A stretch of DNA of 64,000 bases from a virus (Duplodnaviria > Heunggongvirae > Uroviricota > Caudoviricetes): IMG/VR virus record IMGVR_UViG_3300023297_000003; one strand, given 5' to 3'. The notes beneath the pieces are model-generated. The model was not told the DNA's origin. It was given only the letters and a program-made list of their open reading frames with translations, and searched no databases. Shown piece after piece: positions 9,075 to 22,508 of this stretch (positions are counted from its first letter, which is position 1; each line of letters opens with the position of its first letter). A program made the position numbers and the translations under genes.

Positions 9075-9650
9075 CTAGGTCAACCTGACAACCCCCGTTG
9101 CCGTCAACTGGAGGCTGCGCTTCTCACCCGTCTCCAGGAACAACTGGATGACCATCGCCATCTGTGCCCCGACCATCCCGATGAAGGGCAGGGCGTCGCC
9201 GTTCTCACAGGTGGCCTGTCCCGGCTCCCCCTCAGCATCGGGAACGAAGTACTCGTCCCACATGATTCGTCCGAACAGCCCCTCGGCGGAGAGGCCACCG
9301 TGGAGGCACGGGATGCCGTGCTCTCGGACGTACCCCTGGATGACCAGACGGGCCTCGATGTTGTCCGTACAGTCTATGACGAGTTCGGCGTCCCGCATCA
9401 CTTCCCGGACGTTGTCCGTGGTGAGCTTGTGCGGAATGATCTCCAGGCTCCGCCCCCACATCCCTTGCATCGCCTGTTGAAGGGCCTGCACCTTGTTCCG
9501 GCCAGACCCCATCCGGGTGTGGAACTGTGCCTGGGTATTTTTCATCTCCACCCGGTCGAAGTCCACCACTCGGATCGTGTGTTCCCAGTTACGCCCGAAC
9601 AGGATGATGTGGCTTCCCAGCGCTCCTGCTCCTACAATGACGATGGTCAT
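9075..9650 (-). CDS. ThiF/E1-like adenylyltransferase
   Basis: IVIVGAGALGS, VVDFDRVEMKN, GRNKV, VIDCTDNIEAR; candidate catalytic Cys in GQATCE. Confidence 0.9.
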   Translation of the reverse strand: MTIVIVGAGALGSHIILFGRNWEHTIRVVDFDRVEMKNTQAQFHTRMGSGRNKVQALQQAMQGMWGRSLEIIPHKLTTDNVREVMRDAELVIDCTDNIEARLVIQGYVREHGIPCLHGGLSAEGLFGRIMWDEYFVPDAEGEPGQATCENGDALPFIGMVGAQMAMVIQLFLETGEKRSLQLTATGVVRLT

Positions 9651-9856
9651 GGTACCCTCAACCAGCATCCGGCCTCGGATCCCCCGTATCCCGGCAGCCA
9701 TTTCTGCACCTTGCCACACACCGAACACCTTCGAGTGATTTCCGGCGAGCCAGGGGGCGGGAAGATGTCCGTGATATGCGGGGGTTGGGACCGCACCCAC
9801 TTGTGGCAATGTAACCCACTCAGCTCTGCCACTATTTTTTTCCACAACATGGGCAT
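9647..9856 (-). CDS. Small Zn-binding hypothetical protein
   Basis: HCH...RRCSVCG, coupled. Confidence 0.55.
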   Translation of the reverse strand: MPMLWKKIVAELSGLHCHKWVRSQPPHITDIFPPPGSPEITRRCSVCGKVQKWLPGYGGSEAGCWLRVP

Positions 9857-10062
9857 TTACCTCCGTTCTTTTCGATCCACACGTCCAACAGGAACATCAT
9901 CGTTTCACCAATGTCCCCGTCGCCACCCATCTTGATGTCAACAGGAAGGCCAGCCTCGCCGTCGATTTTGGACATGGCCCTCACCACCGCTTCCGAGAAG
10001 GGGTGATGAGGGACGCCGTCTTCCCACCGCTGATCTAGCCTCGCCCCCGTGTCCCCGGCCAT
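9832..10062 (-). CDS. Small hypothetical protein
   Basis: Abuts Ubl stop; GGDGDIGE motif. Confidence 0.6.
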   Translation of the reverse strand: MAGDTGARLDQRWEDGVPHHPFSEAVVRAMSKIDGEAGLPVDIKMGGDGDIGETMMFLLDVWIEKNGGKCPCCGKK

Positions 10063-10311
10063 CTAGGCTCCGAGCGGGGCCTTGGGACGCACGATGATCT
10101 TGTTGTCCGGGATCTCGTCGTTGGCCGGAAAGCGGTTCACCACGAAATCCTTGAGGTCGATGTCAGGGTCGGCATTGATGCCGGGCACCGATCCGTCCCT
10201 CACGGCCTCCTCGACCCAGCCCCGGATTTCCTGATCCGTGGCATCGTAAAGAACCGGGTCCGGGAGGTCACCGTTCTGACCGTCCCACGTAATGTTCACT
10301 CGTGCATTCAT
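10063..10311 (-). CDS. Putative ubiquitin-like (beta-grasp) protein
   Basis: 82 aa, beta-beta-alpha-beta-beta pattern, C-terminus IIVRPKAPLG-A, located between JAB and E1. Confidence 0.7.
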   Translation of the reverse strand: MNARVNITWDGQNGDLPDPVLYDATDQEIRGWVEEAVRDGSVPGINADPDIDLKDFVVNRFPANDEIPDNKIIVRPKAPLGA

Positions 10312-10361
10312 CTGATCCTCCTGTTTGTCCACGAGGTTGATCCTCGGGCTGTACCACTATA

Positions 10362-10388
10362 CTACTCGGGGGCACTCTAGGATGATCC
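10362..10388 (-). promoter_or_regulatory. GGATCATC-N13-GAGTAG promoter-like motif
   Basis: Exact match upstream of Ubl. Confidence 0.7.
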
Positions 10389-10766
10389 TGAGAGTCTCAG
10401 CAACTCCTCGATCTCAAGCTCATGTTCGATTCGGGGCGGGATCTTTTGGGGGCGCACCACTACGTATTCGTCCGTCACCACGTGCCGCATGAAGTACTTG
10501 ACCTCGGTGAGGGTGATAATCGGCCAAAGGAGTCTTTGACCAAGGCCCTTCTCCAAGGCGGTGAAGGTGGTTGTGTCCGTATGGGACGGCCACGCTTCTC
10601 CCCTCCACGGGTGCGTATGCGCCAGCCCCCCGAGATTCTTCCGGTTGTCCCAGAGGAATTGCCAGAGGTCGAAGGAGTCCGGGATGCTTCCCCCTGTGCG
10701 TCCAGGCGGGAGATGCCAAAGGAGCGTCTTTCCGTCCTTGTCAAAAACTAATGCAACTTCGATCAT
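10377..10766 (-). CDS. JAB/MPN+ (Mov34) metallopeptidase
   Basis: N-terminal E, AHTHPW...PSHTD = JAMM motif. Confidence 0.88.
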   Translation of the reverse strand: MIEVALVFDKDGKTLLWHLPPGRTGGSIPDSFDLWQFLWDNRKNLGGLAHTHPWRGEAWPSHTDTTTFTALEKGLGQRLLWPIITLTEVKYFMRHVVTDEYVVVRPQKIPPRIEHELEIEELLRLSGSS

Positions 10767-10775
10767 TGTAGTCTC

Positions 10776-11819
10776 CTACCAGTCATCGTCCTCGTCGTCA
10801 TAACGGTCAGGATCTTGGCCCCCAGGCAGATGCGCCTGGGGAATGGCACCCCGCTGATTGTTTACATCTCCCGGAGCGTGTCTGTAAACTACCAGCCGCC
10901 CCTGGAGCATCGCGTCATTAATAATCGCTGGGAGCGATTCTAGCGTGAAATAGTTGTCCCCCTTCTCACCGTGGTGGTCGTTCAAGCAAACACCCGAGTC
11001 AACGATTCGCAGGGTTCGCTTCTCCACAACACATTCCAGCCGCCTGTGCAGGTAACGATACTGGACAACCATCCAGGCCCCGTTGTTGTGAGGGCGGGCA
11101 TCCAGTAGGGTTGCGCCCGAAACACCCAGTGCGGCCCTGCAGGCGGCGCTGAAGTCCACTGCTGCCAGTGCCCTGCGTCCGGCACCCGTACTGGCATCCT
11201 TCATGGCCTGTCGGAGCTTCTCCTCCGCAATGGTCTTCTTCTCCTCCTCAGCCCTCCGTGCAGCCGCTTCAGCCTCCCGGCGTTCGGCTTCGACACGCTG
11301 GAAGGAGAGCCACCGGAAAGCGAGATCCAAGGCGGGTGTCACTCCGGCCACATGCGCCACGGAGTCTAATCGATCCTGGTAGGCCACTTCGACCTCCATC
11401 TCAGGACCGACAGGGAACTCCTGTCGTATGTAAACGTGGGCGTTCCCCGTCTCAGTGGAGAGGGGGATCACGACCGCCCTGGCAAACCTGTCCAGCCCCT
11501 GTTCCACGAGGAGTACGGAGATGGTCTGATCGATCATTTTATCGGGATCCGGGTCCACCCGAACACCGTCAGGAATCAGTCGTTCCCCAGCGAGGTAGCC
11601 TCGGATGACCTTGTGTCCTTGCTCGAACTCGAAGTCAGGGTCAGCTGCCTTGATGAGCCGGGCAGTTCGACCCCCGGAGATCTCGAAGGTGTACCATCCA
11701 AACTCCTCGGGGAGCCGACCGGCGATACGCCAGATCTGGTCCTTGTACGCCAATCGGCGTTCCCCGAGCCAGGGGAGTACCCGCTTCTCGTTCTCTGAAA
11801 GTAAGTCCTGCCACCCCAT
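10776..11819 (-). CDS. Putative E2-like conjugating protein (N-terminal domain + coiled coil + C-terminal Cys domain)
   Basis: IVDSGVCL...FTLESLPAII recalls the E2 active-site Cys and following helix; context; RBS before MGWQDLL. Confidence 0.55.
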   Translation of the reverse strand: MGWQDLLSENEKRVLPWLGERRLAYKDQIWRIAGRLPEEFGWYTFEISGGRTARLIKAADPDFEFEQGHKVIRGYLAGERLIPDGVRVDPDPDKMIDQTISVLLVEQGLDRFARAVVIPLSTETGNAHVYIRQEFPVGPEMEVEVAYQDRLDSVAHVAGVTPALDLAFRWLSFQRVEAERREAEAAARRAEEEKKTIAEEKLRQAMKDASTGAGRRALAAVDFSAACRAALGVSGATLLDARPHNNGAWMVVQYRYLHRRLECVVEKRTLRIVDSGVCLNDHHGEKGDNYFTLESLPAIINDAMLQGRLVVYRHAPGDVNNQRGAIPQAHLPGGQDPDRYDDEDDDW

Positions 11820-11840
11820 GGGGAACCTCCCATGGGTCAT

Positions 11841-12546: not shown

Positions 12547-14481
12547 CTAGGCCCAGAAGGGCTTCTGGAGCAATGAGGTCTCAAGAATTTCCTGGAGCAG
12601 GGACTTCCGATGCTTCACCGGGGCATCCTGCTTCGTCGTCCCCACCGGCGTGGTGGAGATCAAGTTCCGCAGGGTCCGGGTCACGGCGTAGGGGTCATCC
12701 GTGTTGAACAGCGCTTCCTCGATCTGGAAGCAGGGGATCCCCATCCTGGTGGCCGTGTCCTGAACGTAGGTACCGTTATGGCCCATCATGCCCTTCACCT
12801 TCAGAAGGCCTATGGCCACCGGACGGACACCATGCCGGTCGCAAACGTTGATGACCCGGTCGCTGGGGTACTCACCCTCGTCACCCACGAAGAGGAACAG
12901 TGCGTCCTCCTCCGGGCCGGGCTTGTGGCTCTTCAGCAGCACATCCACCCCAGTGGCGTGGCACGTCCCACCCGCTGCCTGATGCCCCCGGAACGCCTGT
13001 TCCACTGCCCCGGCAGAAGCCGCCTTGATGGTGATCTCCATACCGATGGTGTTGAACACCGAAACGTGCAGGCGATCCAGCGGGAAGCCCCCGAGGAACT
13101 TCTTAAGGTAGCCCTTCGCCGCCTGGATGGCACCCTGCATGGAACCGGACTTGTCCACAATGACGTAGACCCGCAGGCCCCTGGTGACTTCCTCCATCGC
13201 CTTCTTCGTGGCCGTGTCCGCTGCACCCTGGAGTTTCTCCACGGTCTCGGTCTTCCGCACACGGCGAGCGATGTTGGTGGCACGCTGGTTGTCCGCAGCC
13301 GCCAGGGCCTTATCGTGCTTGGCCTGGATGTCGGGCAGCTTCAGGAGTTCCATGTCCTCCAGCGTCGGCGTCAGGATGATCAGGTCGGCATTGGACATGC
13401 AACCGTTCAGGACAGCCGCCGCAACAATGGCACGGGTGAGACCCCCGAGGTATCCTTTGGGATACGGTTTGTCAGTATCCTTCGGAAGCGGGGGCGGAAG
13501 CTTTCCAACGATCAGCTTCCAGTTGGGCTTGTCCTTGGCGATGCGGTTGCAGATCTGCCGTTCGGACAAACCCTCCCAGGTGTCAGCCTTCTTGACCTTC
13601 GCACCAATGGCAATGGTCCGACGACCGTCCTTGGCCTGTTCCTGCTTCCACCGCAGGATCTCGAAGAACTGCGGGGACGTCGGCTTGTACCCGACCCGCT
13701 GGGCGAGCCGGATCACGGAAGTACGGAAACCCGCACGGACGAGACCATTCAGGAGCTTGATGTTCTCCTCACGGTACCGAAGCCACTTTGTCACGAGCTT
13801 CAGGTAGCGCCCGTAGAACGGCTTCCGAGCGGAGTGGCCGAAGCCGAGATCCCTGTTGATCTGTGCTACCCCCGGCACAGCCAGCACGTCACCGAGCCGG
13901 AGCAGGAGCTTGGGGTTGAAATCGTGCTTGCCCCGGATCAGGCACATGGCCTCCCCGACCGCACGGTAGTCATCATCCAAGAGATCCGGCTCACCCGCTA
14001 CGGGTTCCCCGAAACGGTTCTGGCAGAGCATGAACGCCGCCAGGATGACCTTCATGTCCCGGTGGTCACGGGGGAAGGCCCAGGACGCCCAGTGAGCGGC
14101 AAACTCGTTGTCCGCCTTCCACACCTCTGCGACCTGCTGGTACATCCAGGTGACTACCTCCGGGAACAGACCCGGCTTGCGGTACTCACCAAGGATCTTC
14201 CGTCCGCTGACGATCTTGCCGTCGTCCCGAAGGATGCCGATTTTGGTCTTGACGGATTTACGAGCCACCTTCGTCAGGCGGTAGACGACCTTCTCCTGTT
14301 TGCCCTTGTCACCCTCTAGCTTCCAGGAGATCGGCTCCCACTTGACGCCGACCTTGGAGGTCGTGTCCGGGGAAACCATCCCCGGCCTCCCATGATAAAG
14401 GTGATCGAGATGAGTGGTCAGGGACTGAATCGCTCGTTCAGCCGGGCCAAGACCCTCAATCCGTGCTTCTTGCTCATTCAT
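12547..14481 (-). CDS. vWA-domain protein, probable divergent TROVE/Ro60-like RNA-binding protein
   Basis: About 430 aa basic helical region then VYVIVDKSGSM MIDAS, GGT, FVGDEGE; adjacent Y-like RNAs. Confidence 0.75.
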   Translation of the reverse strand: MNEQEARIEGLGPAERAIQSLTTHLDHLYHGRPGMVSPDTTSKVGVKWEPISWKLEGDKGKQEKVVYRLTKVARKSVKTKIGILRDDGKIVSGRKILGEYRKPGLFPEVVTWMYQQVAEVWKADNEFAAHWASWAFPRDHRDMKVILAAFMLCQNRFGEPVAGEPDLLDDDYRAVGEAMCLIRGKHDFNPKLLLRLGDVLAVPGVAQINRDLGFGHSARKPFYGRYLKLVTKWLRYREENIKLLNGLVRAGFRTSVIRLAQRVGYKPTSPQFFEILRWKQEQAKDGRRTIAIGAKVKKADTWEGLSERQICNRIAKDKPNWKLIVGKLPPPLPKDTDKPYPKGYLGGLTRAIVAAAVLNGCMSNADLIILTPTLEDMELLKLPDIQAKHDKALAAADNQRATNIARRVRKTETVEKLQGAADTATKKAMEEVTRGLRVYVIVDKSGSMQGAIQAAKGYLKKFLGGFPLDRLHVSVFNTIGMEITIKAASAGAVEQAFRGHQAAGGTCHATGVDVLLKSHKPGPEEDALFLFVGDEGEYPSDRVINVCDRHGVRPVAIGLLKVKGMMGHNGTYVQDTATRMGIPCFQIEEALFNTDDPYAVTRTLRNLISTTPVGTTKQDAPVKHRKSLLQEILETSLLQKPFWA

Positions 14482-15118
14482 GGTGTCTCCTGCTTTGTCT
14501 GTTTGTCCGAAGGCGATGACAGATGGCACACACCACATCGCACTTGGCTATCTCATCTAATAGTAATTGCTTGGACCCACAAAAGACCATGCTGGAAATT
14601 TTGGCCACCTTGGTTTTCGGGTCTCTGTGATCAAAGTCCATGGCACAGGCAGGAAAGGAACAACCACAGTCCTGACAGGGTTGATTTTTAGCCTGGGCTG
14701 CGATCTTTTGGAGTTTGGTTCTCTGACGACGGTTGTTCTTCAGGTAAGGAACCCGATCCTTTCGGTATTGTCGTAAACGGTGTTCCCTTTGGCAGTCCCG
14801 ACAACGAGAAAGGCGACGCAACAGCGACTCGTTTTTGAAAGCAAAGGTGCTAATCGGAAGCTCTCTCTGACAATCAGGACAAACCCTGGTGCTCGGTTCC
14901 ACAATTAATCCAGCGGTCACGGCTTGCCTGCGAGCGTCCAGCAGACGTTGTTGCTCCCGTCTGTACTGGGCTTTATCCTGACGAGCATACCGCTGCGCCC
15001 GGTACATCCTGTCACACTCCTGACACTTGGAGATCCTGTATCCCTTTGCTTTTACCTTGACTCGGAATTCATCAAGGGGGAAGGCACCCCCACAACCTGT
15101 ACAAATTTTTATGCCCAT
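14474..15118 (-). CDS. HNH homing endonuclease with Zn-finger repeats
   Basis: CTGC/CQEC/CPDC repeats; CQDCG...MDFDHRDP...KCDVVCAICHRLR. Confidence 0.85.
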   Translation of the reverse strand: MGIKICTGCGGAFPLDEFRVKVKAKGYRISKCQECDRMYRAQRYARQDKAQYRREQQRLLDARRQAVTAGLIVEPSTRVCPDCQRELPISTFAFKNESLLRRLSRCRDCQREHRLRQYRKDRVPYLKNNRRQRTKLQKIAAQAKNQPCQDCGCSFPACAMDFDHRDPKTKVAKISSMVFCGSKQLLLDEIAKCDVVCAICHRLRTNRQSRRHHE

Positions 15119-15236
15119 CAACTGCCTCCGACTACCCGGCACACAATAGACATTACAGGTTGTGTTCCATGTGATCAAACGAACACCTCTAATTCGAGAG
15201 CTGATGCAAAACATCTGCTCCCCCGTTCACATTGGT

Positions 15237-15273: not shown

Positions 15274-15300
15274 ACAAAAGGGGAGGTTGCCCTCCCCTTT
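15274..15300 (-). terminator. Intrinsic terminator closing the ncRNA array
   Basis: AAAGGGGAGG-GCAA-CCTCCCCTTTT hairpin. Confidence 0.65.
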
Positions 15301-15311
15301 CGGGTGTAACT

Positions 15312-15395
15312 GAACGTGCGAGGAGCCGAGCGGAACTTGCGATGGTAACAGGGCGGACCCCGTTGGTGCTTGTATGCTCGACAGGCTGCACGTCC
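15312..15395 (-). ncRNA. Y-RNA-like ncRNA 1 (bulged-stem module + simple hairpin)
   Basis: GGACGTGC/GCACGTTC and GTCGAGC/GCTCGGC stems, ATACAAG motif. Confidence 0.7.
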
Positions 15396-15414
15396 AAACT
15401 GAATATCAAATAGA

Positions 15415-15561
15415 GGACATCCGAGTGAGTGAGCGTGTTACCAGTTCCCCTTCCCGCCGGGTCGGGGGACTGCGGACTGGAATTGAACCAGTAACTTTCA
15501 GATTATGAGTCTGATGCTCGACCAATTGAGCTACCTTGTGTGCTCACTCTGATGGATGCCC
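15415..15561 (-). ncRNA. Y-RNA-like ncRNA 2 (module enclosing D, anticodon CAT, T arms)
   Basis: GGGCATCC-ATC-AGAGTGAGC-ACACAAG...GCTCACTC-ACTC-GGATGTCC. Confidence 0.8.
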
Positions 15562-15565
15562 TCAA

Positions 15566-15630
15566 GTGCGAAGCCAGGATTTGAACCTGGCTCAAAGCCG
15601 GAGTTACCTCCTCCCATCCGCAGTTCGTAC
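15566..15630 (-). ncRNA. Minimal tRNA-like RNA (acceptor + T arm)
   Basis: GTACGAA/TTCGCAC; CCAGG-TTCAAAT-CCTGG. Confidence 0.55.
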
Positions 15631-15634
15631 CAAA

Positions 15635-15770
15635 AGCACCCGAGTAGGCGAACGTTGTTTACAATCCCTTGCGAGATCGTGGAATCGGATTCGAACCGAT
15701 CACCTTCAGCTTTGCAGGCTGATGCTCTATCCAGATGAGCTATCCTTGTATGTTCGCCTGGATGGGTGCC
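15635..15770 (-). ncRNA. Y-RNA-like ncRNA 3 (anticodon-like GCA)
   Basis: GGCACCC-ATC-CAGGCGAAC-ATACAAG...GTTCGCCT-ACTC-GGGTGCT. Confidence 0.8.
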
Positions 15771-15772
15771 CT

Positions 15773-15845
15773 TGGTGCAGACGTCAGGAGTCGAACCTGA
15801 AGACGTGGGCAAACACGTCATCCCGCCTGTGCCGGGATTACTGCA
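15773..15845 (-). ncRNA. Non-canonical cloverleaf tRNA-like RNA with CCA end
   Basis: TGCAG/CTGCA-CCA, ATCCCG/CGGGAT, GACGTG/CACGTC, T arm. Confidence 0.6.
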
Positions 15846-15849
15846 TGAA

Positions 15850-15911
15850 GCGGCAAGTCAGGAATTGAACCCGAAAAGGTTGCATGCACCTTTTGACCAC
15901 AACTGTACCGC
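15850..15911 (-). ncRNA. Minimal D-armless tRNA-like RNA
   Basis: GCGGTA/TGCCGC, AAAAGGT/ACCTTTT, T arm. Confidence 0.55.
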
Positions 15912-15916
15912 AAATA

Positions 15917-16048
15917 AAGGACGCACGAGGTGACGTGCTGTGTTTGGTGGAAAGAAACGGAATTGAACCGTTAACCTTCGGAATGTAAATCCGATGCTCT
16001 ACCAATTGAGCTATCATACCTTGTAAGCACGTCTGATTGTGCGCCCTT
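15917..16048 (-). ncRNA. Y-RNA-like ncRNA 4 (anticodon-like TAC)
   Basis: AAGGGCGCAC-AATC-AGACGTGC-TTACAAG...GCACGTC-ACCTC-GTGCGTCCTT. Confidence 0.8.
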
Positions 16049-16050
16049 AG

Positions 16051-16184
16051 TCGGGGAGCCAGGATTCGAACCTGGGCAGCGTGTATGCTTCCCTTGATGG
16101 ACCCGTAAAGGTCCGAGGTGAGAAGCGGGGTTGCTTTTGGCTTTCTCTAAATGAAAGTGCTCTACCAGACTGAGCTACCCCCCG
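16051..16184 (-). ncRNA. Y-RNA-like ncRNA 5: full tRNA scaffold (Pro-like acceptor, TTA anticodon) with permuted module in variable region
   Basis: CGGGGGG/CTCCCCG-A; GCTTCTC-ACCTC-GGACC...GGTCC-ATC-AAGGGAAGC-ATACA. Confidence 0.78.
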
Positions 16185-16277: not shown

Positions 16278-17715
16278 TGGTTTCGGAAAGTTTTTCAACT
16301 TTCCTGGCGTCCTTTCACCGCCGTTAACGCTCTGCCGAAACAGAGTGACGTACCCGACCAGTTATTGGGTACGATTCGCCCCCAGGAATCTCGCCTGGGT
16401 TACCATGCATGCCTGCAATATTACAGGAACCGATGGCAGGGCTGTGAGCCCAACTATTCTTCGGCCTCAGGAACTCGTCCCTCAACCACGACCAAGCTCT
16501 CGGACGTAAAGTATGCTTTCGGGATCTTCCTTCCAGGTTTACCCGAGAACCCCCACGACCTGTTAACTTGTCCGTAAAACGTTGACTCTCCAAATAACCC
16601 ATACCCCTGCGAGCTATCACTAGCGCAGCAGCAGTGTGAACATTCAAAGAGTACATGTCCTGATACTTCAGTTTTCCCAGCACCGAAGTAAACGCTGGGT
16701 TAACCTCGACAACTTCGACACCCATCTTCACAGCACGAGACTTGATTGCTTCCAGCATCTGACGATGAAGGAAATTGGATCTCATACGATTGAACTTCTT
16801 GTTCTTCTGTTTACCTGCCCGAAAACGTAGTTCCTCAAGAACAAGAGGCTTCTTTGTTAAGAAGGCAAACAAAACGACCCGAACCGCAAGTTGCCGAATG
16901 TCATAGGTCTGTTTTTCGGATTTGGCGAAACGAATCCTCTGTTCCTTTTCATAGTGATGGTGAACAAGCTGTCCCTGAGAGTTCGTTTCAACAATAGCAA
17001 GACCGTCAGGGTTGCAGTCGATACCAATGGTTCCCTGACTAACAGGTTTCGTTACGATCTGTGGGGTTTCAAATTCTGAGGAAATCTTGACCTCAATCTG
17101 ACCCTTACGGTAGATAAGTCTCACGTCGTAGCAGTCTGGATTGAACTCAAACTTGTCAGGCATCCAGAACTTGCCCTCAATCCAACGACCTCGTTCCGAA
17201 GGGTCGTTAACGAGGATTCGGTTACCCACTATACGGATGTTAGGATTCCCTCGCTTGGTTTTGTCTCCTCGGGAATAGAGTTGTGAGTTACGCCTCTGTT
17301 GCCATTCCCCCTTGGAGATCTTGCCTTTTTGGAGGTCTCTCCAAGCTGGTTTGCCTCCGAAAATTACCGAGGGGGTGTTTCTCTTTTGGGCAGCGAGGCC
17401 GCAAGCGTCTCCAACATACCGTTGGTTTAGGCCAGCCATGTAGTTTCCCTTGATGGCTTTTTTGACCTGATTTCCAAAGTCGCCTGTTCGTCGTGTGTGC
17501 TGATATGCCGCTCTGGTAGCAGAGGCTTGGATTTTCATCAGAGTGAGGATCCGATCCAACGCTGGATCTGGGAACCAAGCTCTGCCGTGGGCAACCTTCC
17601 TCATGGTTCAAAGAGTACAGGGTACGATCCTCCCTGTCAAGTTTTCTCTATGCATCTCGTGTAATCCCTTTTGCCCAATTTCGCCCAAGATTTTTGGAGA
17701 CTGTTCAAACCTCCT
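16276..17715 (-). mobile_element. Non-autonomous TnpB element (IS607-like), copy 1
   Basis: Ends shared with copy 2: left AGGAGGTT...TTGAC, right GGTGAAAGGACGCCAG-hairpin-CGAAACCAGG. Confidence 0.7.
16324..17604 (-). CDS. tnpB: TnpB RNA-guided endonuclease
   Basis: GIDCNPD, LVLEEL, VNPAFTS, HTAAALVIARRG. Confidence 0.88.
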   Translation of the reverse strand: MRKVAHGRAWFPDPALDRILTLMKIQASATRAAYQHTRRTGDFGNQVKKAIKGNYMAGLNQRYVGDACGLAAQKRNTPSVIFGGKPAWRDLQKGKISKGEWQQRRNSQLYSRGDKTKRGNPNIRIVGNRILVNDPSERGRWIEGKFWMPDKFEFNPDCYDVRLIYRKGQIEVKISSEFETPQIVTKPVSQGTIGIDCNPDGLAIVETNSQGQLVHHHYEKEQRIRFAKSEKQTYDIRQLAVRVVLFAFLTKKPLVLEELRFRAGKQKNKKFNRMRSNFLHRQMLEAIKSRAVKMGVEVVEVNPAFTSVLGKLKYQDMYSLNVHTAAALVIARRGMGYLESQRFTDKLTGRGGSRVNLEGRSRKHTLRPRAWSWLRDEFLRPKNSWAHSPAIGSCNIAGMHGNPGEIPGGESYPITGRVRHSVSAER

Positions 17716-17739
17716 TGAGACTGACTTTTTTCTGAAAAG

Positions 17740-17811
17740 AGCGGGTGATGGGATTCGAACCCACAACGTCTGCGTTGGCAACGCAGGACTCTACCGTTGA
17801 GCTACACCCGC
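17740..17811 (-). tRNA. tRNA-Gly(GCC)
   Basis: Canonical cloverleaf. Confidence 0.93.
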
Positions 17812-17820
17812 AAACTGAAG

Positions 17821-17955
17821 CTGCCCCGACAGGACTTGAACCTGTGACCTCCCTAGCTTGTATGCTCCACTGGATGGCACGTTGCCGTGCCGAGGTGCGG
17901 AGCGGTGTTTGCTTCCCTTAAAATGGGGGCGCTCTACCAACTGAGCTACGGGGCA
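17821..17955 (-). ncRNA. Y-RNA-like ncRNA 6: tRNA scaffold with permuted module inserted 3' of the anticodon loop
   Basis: TGCCCCG/CGGGGCA; GCTCCGC-ACCTC-GGCAC...GTGCC-ATC-CAGTGGAGC-ATACAAG. Confidence 0.78.
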
Positions 17956-18415: not shown

Positions 18416-18472
18416 GCGTCCCTAGCAGGATTTGAATTCAGGATGCCATGCTACCAGGCTGCACTACCCCCC
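18416..18472 (-). pseudogene. Chimeric tRNA remnant (Pro-like 5' half + Arg-like 3' end)
   Basis: GGGGGGTAGTGCAGCCTGGTAGCAT...TTCAAATCCTGCTAGGGACG. Confidence 0.6.
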
Positions 18473-19108
18473 AAGTTTGTCCCACCTTTCCTGAGCATCA
18501 GGACAGATTGTGACAGCGGATGTCAGGTGTGTAAGTTCCTCCCAATTCCAGACATAGCAAATGTCAGTGAACAGGTCGTAACCCACAAGGAAATCAAAGT
18601 CACCTTTCTGATAACGACCTCCAGTCCTACGCCCTCTTCCAAAATGAAGAGACACAGTGGACAGGCCGTGTCCCTTATTGGGCCTCCATGCGGTTTTGAC
18701 CTGTATTTTGTGTACCTGCCCCGTAGATGGGACCTCTACTAACCAGTCGGTCTTATCCCCATCAAAGACAGACCCGAAAGGATTGAAACCATGGATGAGG
18801 AGTCGTAACAGTACTGCTGTCTCTGAAACCTTAGCCACTTGGACTCCATTAAGCCCCTTACTTCTGACAAGGGAGTGAATCTCAGATTCGGTCCCTCGCT
18901 CCTTTTTTCTTCCCTTGTTCCAAGCTCCCGGATGTGCCCGTTTTAGGCACTCTCTCTTTTCCTCCGCTGTAAGAGGGTAACCCTTCAGCCAACTGGAGAG
19001 CGAACCTTTGCTGACCCCCAGTCTTTCCTGCAATTCCCGGTAAGAGAGTCTTTCCTCCACACGCAGTCTGATACACTCAACTTTCAACTCTGGTTTGGAT
19101 GCAGCCAT
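18464..19108 (-). CDS. HTH + PD-(D/E)xK homing endonuclease (I-Ssp6803I-like family)
   Basis: LSYRELQERLGVSKGSLSSWL; DWLV...KIQVKT...YQKGDFDF. Confidence 0.82.
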   Translation of the reverse strand: MAASKPELKVECIRLRVEERLSYRELQERLGVSKGSLSSWLKGYPLTAEEKRECLKRAHPGAWNKGRKKERGTESEIHSLVRSKGLNGVQVAKVSETAVLLRLLIHGFNPFGSVFDGDKTDWLVEVPSTGQVHKIQVKTAWRPNKGHGLSTVSLHFGRGRRTGGRYQKGDFDFLVGYDLFTDICYVWNWEELTHLTSAVTICPDAQERWDKLGG

Positions 19109-20461: not shown

Positions 20462-21082
20462 TCACAGAACAAGGAACCCATGATCGAATTCCCAATGATG
20501 TGTAGGACATAAAGCAACATTGTTTGATTCGGCATTTACCTCTGCCAATGTGGCTGTCTCGGGGAAGGAAGAAATTGCTTTGCGGTGACAAAGTTCAACA
20601 TGTCTACTGTAACCACAGACGGCGCAGGAAGTTATGAGATGAGCGTTCCATCGACGATTCAATACTCTGACGTAAGCCCATCTCCAGGAAGGATGTTTGT
20701 TAGCTACGGATGGCCGGGAGGAGCATTCAGCCAGAGTCATGTGTTTTAGATTCTCTTTTGCTTTTTTACGCCTTTGCTGGCATCCGGGACAGAACTTAGT
20801 GCGCTGGGTGCCCACAAAAACAAAGCTTTTTCCGCAGTCCTTGCAGAAGCGTTCTTTGCGTTTGCGCTTAGGATTGGATGTGTTTGCATGGCTGGCAGAA
20901 CACGAACGAGAACAAAAACTGTTACTCCGCTTTTCATAAGGTAAAAGCAATCCACAGTGGGCACAACATTTTTGAAGTCCTGTAAACTTCGCCACCGCTT
21001 CAGAATGTTGCCGTTTCCTGCACGCCTCCATCGCTTCCTGTGTTTTGGCGTACCCTAATTTCCCACTCTCAATGTTGTTCAT
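20462..21082 (-). CDS. HNH homing endonuclease
   Basis: FCSRSC; CAVCG...VELCHRK...NNVALCPTHH. Confidence 0.85.
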   Translation of the reverse strand: MNNIESGKLGYAKTQEAMEACRKRQHSEAVAKFTGLQKCCAHCGLLLPYEKRSNSFCSRSCSASHANTSNPKRKRKERFCKDCGKSFVFVGTQRTKFCPGCQQRRKKAKENLKHMTLAECSSRPSVANKHPSWRWAYVRVLNRRWNAHLITSCAVCGYSRHVELCHRKAISSFPETATLAEVNAESNNVALCPTHHWEFDHGFLVL

Positions 21083-21593: not shown

Positions 21594-22508
21594 TCAGGTC
21601 ATCTCAAGGGGTTCGCCCAGCTTGTCCACGATCTCCTGGAGGGTCAGGTCACACAGGTCGTCCTTCCAGTCCCCTACAAAGTAGAGCTTCCGGGATCCCC
21701 GGAACACACCGAACAGGATGGGATCACGACGTCGGGCCATCTCCTCCTCCACCTCGACCTGGGACATCTCAGCGGACTTGCCCATTGGGTCGTAGTGAAG
21801 GACCACGTAGTTGTCGAAGATCCCGAGTTCGTCACACCGGACCTTCTCGGCCACCACCTCGTCGGGGATGGGCCGGGTAAAATGCCGGACCCAGTCCAAA
21901 CACAGGCCCTTCTCACAGCCCTTAACGAACTTGAGGAGTTGGGGCTCCGTGATGAGCTTCTTCCGGCCCGCAGCGAACAGGGCGTTCTCGGTCTGGTGCA
22001 GACCCTTCTCGGCCTTCAGCTTCTCCAGCAGGGATTGCTGTCCTGTCAAGGAAGCCTGCTCCAGCATCTTCTCAAGCTGTCCATCCCGCTCCGTCCAGAC
22101 TTTGATTTCCTCTGGGTCCGTGAGCACCTGATCGAACACCAGGGTGATTGGTTTCGGGGGCTCCTCAGGAGGAGGCTTCGTAGCCCAGAGCTTTGTCCAC
22201 CGGATCAGGAGCCGCACGAAAAGGGTCTTCTTGGTTTCCTGGAGACTGTTCATGATGCCGATGGGGTTATCCGATGTCAGGGTGAAGGAGCCGCTGTCGG
22301 ACTGCCAGATCTCCGGGGGACGGCGTGTCCTCCGCATTTCCCCCCTGATGGGGGTGGTGTTGTCCCCGAACCCCTCCTGGTCATCACCATTGTCGTCATC
22401 ATCAACCTCCCGTTCCTTCACGAACTTGGGTAGGCCAGGATCGACAACAAAGCGGTCGAAGATGAGCAAAGAGTCGTGGGGGTTCCTGGTATCAAGCGTC
22501 TTCAGCAT
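21594..22508 (-). CDS. Conserved large-phage hypothetical protein
   Basis: 304 aa; VVLHYDP...DPILFG...LYFVGDWKDDLCDLTL. Confidence 0.75.
   Translation of the reverse strand: MLKTLDTRNPHDSLLIFDRFVVDPGLPKFVKEREVDDDDNGDDQEGFGDNTTPIRGEMRRTRRPPEIWQSDSGSFTLTSDNPIGIMNSLQETKKTLFVRLLIRWTKLWATKPPPEEPPKPITLVFDQVLTDPEEIKVWTERDGQLEKMLEQASLTGQQSLLEKLKAEKGLHQTENALFAAGRKKLITEPQLLKFVKGCEKGLCLDWVRHFTRPIPDEVVAEKVRCDELGIFDNYVVLHYDPMGKSAEMSQVEVEEEMARRRDPILFGVFRGSRKLYFVGDWKDDLCDLTLQEIVDKLGEPLEMT

Follow-up and report, generated by a model that had tools for sequence, protein, structure and literature searches.

What is an RNA with the body of a tRNA, and with 5′ and 3′ ends that pair into a long interrupted stem, doing in the genome of a phage, and why are several such RNAs encoded side by side? 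This question is raised by a 64,000-nucleotide stretch of the IMG/VR virus record IMGVR_UViG_3300023297_000003 (hereafter the window, to which positions refer unless another record or locus is named). The window corresponds to G000:C1:22975-86974 of a 188-kb phage contig, which has an estimated completeness of ~36% and encodes an RIIA homologue. Four units lie on its minus strand: B (15917-16047), D (15632-15773), F (15413-15563) and G (15311-15396). Here, we show that they are members of a conserved family of tRNA-derived noncoding RNAs of huge phages, which has no entry in Rfam, and that this family accompanies the gene for a 644-aa protein with a C-terminal vWA domain, the candidate partner of the RNAs.

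All four units are built in the same order: stem1 (6–9 bp), a loop of 4–5 nt on each strand, stem2 (7–9 bp), the junction (A/T)(C/T)ACAAG, an insert, the return strand of stem2, A(C)CTC or TCCTC, and the return strand of stem1. We refer to these paired ends, with their loop and junction, as the handle. The 5′ loop contains ATC in three units and AGCC in G. A preliminary description of the locus had pointed to this common layout and to stems that differ in sequence yet pair, and direct reading bears it out. Minimum-free-energy folding of each isolated unit gives both handle helices, with z-scores against dinucleotide shuffles of −5.5 (B), −4.7 (D), −3.8 (F) and −3.1 (G). When a structural descriptor was run over the whole 188-kb genome, the full signature appeared only at the four units and at two closed copies (16051-16184 and 17821-17955, discussed below), the remaining matches lacking ATC/CTC; a descriptor that demands ATC, it turns out, overlooks most homologues.

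What the handle encloses varies. In B, the handle (AAUCA/ACCUC loop, UUACAAG junction) surrounds a full tRNA-Val(UAC)-like cloverleaf, whose acceptor has seven positions (five Watson-Crick pairs and two U-U), a discriminator A and an encoded CCA. In D and F, it surrounds tRNA-like bodies with anticodons GCA and CAU and acceptor remnants of only 3 and 2 bp, respectively, each with an extra hairpin, which in D lies in the 3′ junction. The presence of D, anticodon and T arms in these three units, also part of the preliminary description, agrees with Rfam tRNA scores of 69.3 (B), 50.0 (D) and 52.7 bits (F, over model positions 6-65). In unit G, a 37-nt insert with one small hairpin and no tRNA body is enclosed by a handle that keeps all invariants (C|A, GC-AUACAAG, CUCG). 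Thus B, D and F have the cloverleaf of a tRNA; the 7-bp acceptor, free 5′ end, 3′ NCCA and identity-matched anticodon of a tRNA are not found together, the acceptor of B being buried in the handle. What the folds, consensus and covariation do show is the general plan of a Y RNA, namely an RNA of ~80–150 nt whose paired ends form a long stem broken by a bulge or internal loop. Inspection of the sequence led us to reject the handle as a known small ribozyme, k-turn, bulge-helix-bulge or RNase III site; it has no GA/AG tandem, no geometry of 3-nt bulge, 4-bp helix and 3-nt bulge, and no hammerhead or hairpin core. An Rfam search up to E = 10 gave no match that identifies it.

To define the family, we built a covariance model (R1) from a plain MAFFT alignment of nine units, for which RNAalifold yields a consensus with both handle helices and the cloverleaf, and in which double-sided changes occur at all 16 handle pairs but one. 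R1 scores B, D and F at 120.9, 108.1 and 100.1 bits. With 63 viral loci fetched for encoding homologues of the 644-aa protein, R1 found 56 non-redundant full-length matches of 65–121 bits, with 40 other huge-phage contigs represented. Ordinary tRNAs of the same loci score at most 50 bits, mostly by aligning to the cloverleaf part alone, and nothing exceeded 50 bits in 0.71 Mb of unrelated viral contigs. The latter are at least 119 mostly chance loci from a scan for an exact 14-base closed-handle pattern, which was useless as a survey and served as the control set. In the alignment of the 56 sequences, 95.7% of cells are paired and compensatory changes are seen at 29 of 30 pairs, among them all 16 of the handle; sliding the partner by 1–3 columns reduces pairing to 27–45%. 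Because this alignment is fitted to the model, we counted separately the 47 sequences that had no part in building it. In these, pairing reaches 93.9% in stem1 (44 distinct strand sequences) and 89.1% in stem2 (42). A covariance model, a covariation check and a comparison with Rfam had been proposed as tests of the family; the first two establish that it is real, and the third gives no strong match apart from that of the body to tRNA.

Conservation is concentrated in unpaired or closing positions of the handle. In the junction ACA(A/C)G, A33, C34, A35 and G37 are present in all 56 sequences, as is CUC on the return strand (C168, U169, C170), which is followed by G in 55. The C-G pair closing stem1 is found in 55 and the A after it (A11) in 51, and stem2 has a conserved G-C/C-G at its inner end. 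Hence, the claim that bulge and flank motifs are conserved holds for C-G/A, ACA(A/C)G and CUCG; it does not hold for ATC, which is restricted to the window genome. With more than 100 copies seen across ~90 contigs, the family is abundant. Our full-text searches of the literature returned no description of this RNA family, nor of a TROVE-like protein joined to a ubiquitin-like (Ubl) cassette in phages. The one GenBank phage with a homologue of the 644-aa protein is Virus Rctr197k (KX853510.1), where the vWA gene is annotated merely as a misc_feature. It has an unannotated family member at 175215-175343 (L191 1416-1544, minus strand), with all invariants, a z-score of −6.1 and a degenerate T loop, located between tRNA-Arg(tct) and tRNA-Met(cat).

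How does the handle relate to the tRNA-like body? A residual acceptor-like stem usually begins with the G of ACA(A/C)G, and the spacer between this G and the D stem leaves room for 6–7 bp of such a stem in 33 of the 56 sequences and for ~3 bp in 20. The handle therefore caps the acceptor arm rather than replacing it. The earlier proposal of replacement was only partly right, since an acceptor stem of 3–7 bp persists and is capped or extended by the handle. The corollary that the RNAs cannot be aminoacylated is not safe for all members, considering the 33 with room for a stem of 6–7 bp.

Units B, D and F, with the handle at the acceptor end, represent what we call type I. The same handle recurs in two other settings. 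At 16051-16184 (minus strand), a full tRNA scaffold, with a 7-bp acceptor, D and T arms and a UUA anticodon loop, carries a capped handle in the position of the variable arm (type II; Rfam tRNA 47.2 bits with a 60-nt insert). At 17821-17955 (minus strand), a type II-like RNA has the capped handle in the anticodon-loop region of its tRNA scaffold (tRNA 48 bits with a 73-nt insert). In both, the handle strands occur in reversed order and are closed by a loop, and the scaffold acceptor of 7 bp is intact. The anticodon stem of the first is a perfect 5 bp with a 7-nt loop centered on UUA, which would read the ochre codon UAA; given how unconstrained the triplets of the family are, this anticodon may be incidental. 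A second covariance model for the capped hairpin (R2) scores these RNAs at 55.3 and 59.8 bits, respectively, and finds 53 further copies in the phage loci. These all share the strand of the vWA gene and lie beside type I RNAs, and 91.6% of their cells are paired. They keep CUCG and ACA(A/C)G; in most, a short stable loop such as GCAA, GAAA or UUCG closes stem1. Capped copies in locus L126, for example, are tRNA-shaped RNAs with the handle at the variable-arm position. The sensitivity of R2 is limited, since MAFFT does not align closed hairpins cleanly and two of its six rows are imperfectly aligned; a genome-wide R2 search of five divergent records at E up to 0.001 gave no match, which for that reason is uninformative.

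The third setting is a permuted form with an open handle, exemplified by L126 13818-13962, L171 13238-13387 and L165 4559-4726. Here, the body runs T arm, closed acceptor hairpin, D arm, anticodon arm. This form is a circular permutation of type II and has the arm order of the bacterial Y RNA YrlA, although its best score with the YrlA model is 26.5 bits against a threshold of 69. One handle thus has three permuted placements: it lies at the acceptor end, it forms a capped variable arm, or it is an open variable arm while the acceptor is closed. Such a series of circular permutations of a single tRNA-plus-handle shape is a strong argument for selection on three-dimensional form, not chain connectivity.

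The RNAs keep constant company. In the window, the gene for the 644-aa vWA protein (12547-14481, minus strand) is followed by a cassette at 9075-11840 (minus strand) that encodes a 354-aa protein of no known family, a 129-aa protein with a weak JAB-like match, proteins of 89 and 76 aa, and a ThiF/E1-like enzyme of 256 aa. All 56 R1 matches lie on the strand of the vWA gene. Twenty-two type I RNAs, in 12 genomes, are 67–5750 nt upstream of it, and 34, in 28 genomes, are 2.7–7.6 kb downstream; no genome has both placements. The shortest downstream distance agrees with the summed lengths of the genes from the vWA gene to the end of the ThiF/E1 gene, as checked in locus L148 and the window. In other phages, the RNAs are found at either end of the cassette, or directly after the vWA gene. 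The linkage that the preliminary description proposed to test is tight: among 15 whole phage records of 67–619 kb, 13 have strong R1 matches, none of which is on the other strand or more than 20 kb from the vWA gene, and the RNA is often only 35–200 nt away. One of the two records without a strong match is a fragment (24% complete) of a larger genome; the other has the most divergent homologue, at 33% identity.

A scan of GTDB genome contigs added 72 further loci with the vWA gene. Phage-like loci among them (at least 50% identity, mostly binned as Myxococcota) also carry RNAs that adjoin the vWA gene. In three contigs binned as Verrucomicrobiota (37–38% identity), the RNA starts 34–55 nt past the vWA stop codon, and in L217, the one Verrucomicrobiota-binned locus examined, it precedes the JAB-like and ThiF genes of the cassette. 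Among metagenome-assembled contigs from GTDB with a homologue of at least 50% identity and handle RNAs (L192-L215), most are in Myxococcota bins (Polyangia, Kofleriaceae, Sandaracinaceae). This binning hints at the host range of the huge-phage lineage, or else at phage contigs that have been mis-binned.

The 644-aa protein has more than 1400 homologues at 55–68% identity, on contigs of up to 536 kb. It consists of a small beta domain, a helical-repeat domain of ~330 aa and a C-terminal vWA domain with a MIDAS (metal-ion-dependent adhesion site), in which the DxSxS, T and D residues are invariant among homologues. Pfam recognizes vWA only, PHROGs, NCBIfam and PADLOC return nothing for the protein, and a profile search of PDB sequences with the protein alignment gives weak vWA matches only. 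Structural comparison is more informative. In the AlphaFold2 model (predicted local distance difference test score 78.8), the vWA domain is clear (Z = 15), and the top Foldseek matches to the full-length model are TROVE/Ro60 structures (9kop, 1yvr, 9nfa, 1yvp, 2i91, 9l5y and 2nvo; E = 9e-8 to 9e-5 over ~550–580 columns), which outrank proteins that share the vWA domain alone. Because vWA domains dominated the VIA-align output for the full-length model, the N-terminal 433 residues were folded separately. Compared with 48,161 representative chains, and without recourse to Foldseek, this part has three Ro60 structures as its first matches (Z = 8.9, 8.9 and 7.5), the next match having Z = 6.1. Its nearest neighbors in a protein language model are TROVE clusters at 0.85–0.86, under the 0.9 line and hence a lead only. 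From these models, it seems quite probable that the 644-aa protein is a distant Ro60-like protein with an extra N-terminal beta domain.

The combination is reminiscent of known systems. Bacteria and phages are known to encode Ro60 together with neighboring tRNA-like Y RNAs (PMC4201824, PMC12135203, PMC7824862). The closest RNA in orientation is Yrn1 of D. radiodurans, in which D-like and T elements follow in tRNA order, with an anticodon-like arm between them, and are not permuted (Chen et al. 2014, PMC4201824). Like the phage RNAs, Yrn1 has paired 5′ and 3′ ends that form a long protein-binding stem (in the phage RNAs, the putative one) and an enclosed domain in tRNA order; its gene is beside that of Ro60, as the phage RNA genes are near that of a protein with a Ro60-like fold. 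In Yrn1, the Ro60-binding helix is of the metazoan type, the D arm is only partial, the "anticodon" loop has 6 nt and there is no variable arm, whereas in the phage RNAs the cloverleaf is complete, the loops are canonical with 7 nt, part of an acceptor stem is left and the handle has other invariants (CUCG, ACA(A/C)G). YrlA (RF02553), like the family, mimics tRNA, has T and D arms and pairs its ends into a stem; it is encoded next to Ro60, and its order of arms (T, closed acceptor, D) is that of permuted members such as the one in L126. Units B, D, F and G, by contrast, are not permuted and lack the YrlA motif GNCGAAN0-1G. Moreover, the Ro60 stem of YrlA is at the position of the anticodon stem; the phage handle is at the acceptor end or variable arm, and the anticodon arm is kept. 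Scores with the YrlA model are 16.4–18.5 bits in the window and 25–26.5 bits in relatives, confined to model positions ~18-91 (the T/D part) and far below the gathering threshold of 69 bits. The preliminary description was therefore partly right in setting this architecture apart from YrlA: what is new lies in the handle and in the series of permutations, not in the orientation, which has a precedent in Yrn1, and YrlA-like permuted members exist.

Among phages, the nearest parallel is the Thermus phage phiLo, which encodes phiRo60, a HEAT ring with a vWA domain, and has the RNAs Yrl1 and Yrl2 just upstream, with a CGAA motif in a stem-bulge-stem (PMC12135203). The window likewise has a phage-encoded, probably Ro60-like protein with Y-like RNAs upstream, and the best structural matches of the 644-aa protein include phiRo60 (9l5y, 9kop). 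phiRo60 is described as a recognizable Ro60 homologue, whereas the 644-aa protein has no Pfam TROVE match, is extended by the N-terminal beta domain and stands first in a cassette that includes JAB-like and ThiF/E1 genes. Finally, the family resembles tRNA itself (RF00005) in its D, anticodon and T arms with conserved tertiary-contact nucleotides, and type II copies resemble class II tRNAs in which the handle serves as the long variable arm. It differs from tRNA in the buried or shortened acceptor end of type I, unconstrained triplets, bodies unrelated to cognate tRNAs and the additional conserved handle.

What, then, might the RNAs do? The handle is most likely where the phage's own divergent Ro60-like protein docks. 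This protein, encoded in the same operon, would be a TROVE-like helical ring with a vWA/MIDAS domain, and the tRNA-shaped domain of the RNA would be the exposed part that recruits an effector. In this arrangement, the RNAs would act as adaptors or gates, in the manner of Y RNAs, that couple the ring protein to a tRNA-recognizing partner. That partner could be an exoribonuclease of the host such as PNPase, one of the tRNA enzymes, or the neighboring Ubl/E1/JAB machinery. Judging from synteny and fold similarity, we lean towards such an adaptor role with a divergent Ro60-like protein, and the family is probably a new kind of Y RNA. A broader proposal is offered only tentatively, and we would call it doubtful as it stands: that huge phages, apparently often binned as Myxococcota or Verrucomicrobiota, have a new ribonucleoprotein system in which a Ro60-like ring reads one handle, grafted in three permuted ways onto tRNA scaffolds, and works with the co-encoded Ubl/E1/JAB cassette. 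As one possibility, the vWA/MIDAS domain might dock the Ubl and so steer conjugation or deconjugation to proteins bound to the displayed tRNA mimic.

Several observations weigh against pairing these RNAs with a Ro60-like protein. Pfam TROVE (PF05731) has no match at E up to 10 in 21 homologues and the 188-kb genome, although control genomes respond. The fold matches have low TM-scores (0.27–0.38) and very large root-mean-square deviations (11–21 Å); for the N-terminal domain, the deviation from Ro60 is 17–21 Å, and a Z of ~9 is merely middling for helical repeats. The handle has neither CGAA nor GNCGAAN0-1G, which mark the Ro60 sites of known bacterial and phage Y RNAs; CGAA is seen in the T loop alone. 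The RNAs are linked to the cassette as a whole, so the binder could be another of its proteins. Lastly, cellular homologues of 33–40% identity, such as those on Corallococcus chromosomes, have no RNA detectable by R1 or R2. On complete Corallococcus chromosomes, a JAB match lies two genes downstream of the vWA gene, in what is apparently the same cassette, and several cellular homologues align only from about residue 112 of the 644-aa query onwards. In L222 (Corallococcus exercitus, NZ_CP102577.1; 9800-13255) and other Myxococcota loci (L220-L263), the vWA homologue is upstream of a 385-aa protein and a JAB-like peptidase. The cassette seems to be older than its phage RNA partners.

The possibility that another cassette protein binds the handle deserves to be spelled out. 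The ThiF/E1-JAB module could use the RNAs as substrates or scaffolds, or be regulated by them, one example being a sulfur relay of the Urm1/TtuB type in which tRNA-like RNAs are thiolated; the handle would then be bound by the 354-aa protein or the E1. Systems of E1-like enzymes and Ubl proteins are known sulfur donors in tRNA thiolation, and 34 of the 56 RNAs are at a distance from the vWA gene that places them just beyond the E1 gene. ThiF and weak Prok-JAB-like matches (the latter with E = 0.014 to 8e-4) recur in the window and the Verrucomicrobiota-binned locus, the Corallococcus chromosome has its JAB match, and the anticodon-loop shape (U33, A37) is conserved. However, no tRNA-thiolase (PP-loop) family was found in the cassette, the RNA directly adjoins the vWA gene in two of the three arrangements, G and some relatives keep the handle without a tRNA body, and cellular cassettes are not accompanied by such an RNA. 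We consider this explanation unlikely.

Another explanation, put forward in the preliminary description, is that the RNAs are decoys or sensors that show anticodon loops to host anticodon nucleases or other tRNA-targeting defenses, the capped acceptor barring their use in translation. Phage tRNAs do counter tRNA-cleaving defenses, these phages have large tRNA arrays, and the acceptor end is indeed buried in the handle. The anticodon loop is also well formed: it has 7 nt in 53 of the 56 sequences, with U33 in 46 and A37 in 44 of the 53. The triplets themselves, however, look unconstrained. The 53 loops contain 29 different triplets, and the four bases are used almost evenly at position 34 (U 18, A 15, G 10, C 10). 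A34 anticodons, normally unused by bacteria, are included, as are Ser and Leu anticodons in bodies that have no long variable arm. This lack of constraint argues against specific baits. The bodies of B, D and F are ~70% identical to the cognate phage tRNAs, no closer than to any other tRNA, and the genome already has normal genes for Val-UAC, Cys-GCA and Met-CAU. In addition, decoys would leave the invariant handle and its strict linkage to the vWA cassette unexplained, and type II copies have free acceptor ends. The idea thus finds no support in the anticodons or bodies, and we think it improbable.

The units might also be pre-tRNAs of the ordinary kind, or tRNA pseudogenes, in which leader and trailer pair to give a processing stem for RNase III, E or P, the handle being only a maturation signal. 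In favor of this, leader-trailer stems of the rRNA type are well established, B scores 69 bits as a tRNA and encodes CCA, and 33 of 56 sequences have room for a 6–7 bp acceptor-like stem whose first base, the invariant G, would be the +1 position of RNase P. Against it stand acceptors of only ~3 bp in 20 of 56, the absence of a tRNA body in G, unconstrained anticodons (Ser and Leu included, although no long variable arm is present), the fact that the genome already has normal genes for Val-UAC, Cys-GCA and Met-CAU, other tRNA genes of the same arrays that do not match the handle part of R1 (at most 50 bits), invariant unpaired bases that are unexpected in RNase III sites, and a handle that also occurs as a capped hairpin inside tRNA scaffolds, which is impossible for a leader-trailer stem. 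We regard this explanation as highly improbable.

The surroundings of the four units suggest how adaptor RNAs of this kind might be produced. An intrinsic-terminator-like hairpin, found by direct reading at 15274-15300 (minus strand) and composed of an A-tract, seven G/C-rich pairs, a GCAA loop and a U-run, starts 11 nt past unit G and closes the RNA array ahead of an HNH gene. The array therefore resembles a transcription unit of its own, and the RNAs would be made as discrete transcripts. A consensus terminator scan missed this hairpin, probably because A-U pairs prolong the stem into the U-run. Direct reading also showed that mini tRNA-like elements without a D arm are interleaved with the type I RNAs: one in the spacer between D and F (15564-15631, minus strand), with an acceptor-like stem, one hairpin and a T arm, and two in the spacer between B and D (15774-15916, minus strand), the second of which ends in CCA. 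These may be punctuation for processing by RNase P and RNase Z that frees the units from one transcript.

Other genes are scattered through this region. The HNH/endonuclease VII-like gene between the RNA array and the vWA gene (14474-15214, minus strand) looks like an insertion, because at several other loci the RNA ends 70–220 nt before the vWA start. A 426-aa open reading frame at 16324-17604 (minus strand) matches the RNA-guided endonuclease TnpB (NCBIfam guided_TnpB, E = 2.8e-16; PHROG transposase). It is inside the RNA array, flanked by tRNA-Gly (17739-17811) and the type II RNA at 16051-16184, and looks like an insertion of the IS200/IS605 type. The minus strand carries ~26 tRNA genes. 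Within the tRNA array, a 214-aa reading frame at 18464-19108 (minus strand) combines a helix-turn-helix with a PD-(D/E)XK domain (Pfam PDDEXK_5, E = 2.4e-8) and may be a homing endonuclease; the array also contains an HNH gene at 20462-21082 and a transposase-like reading frame at 21594-22508.

Annotation pipelines label genes of this family as ordinary tRNAs, which happened here with Cys-GCA and Val-UAC, or leave them out, which happened in KX853510.1, and such errors inflate or distort the tRNA inventories of phages. With two working covariance models, R1 and R2, the family is directly testable. More generally, Ro60-Y RNA particles are a conserved and poorly understood device of RNA surveillance, whose phage versions have been studied only recently. 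The family described here would add to them a second, sequence-unrelated solution for a protein-binding handle, as well as a genomic link between a Ro60-like protein and a cassette for ubiquitin-like conjugation.

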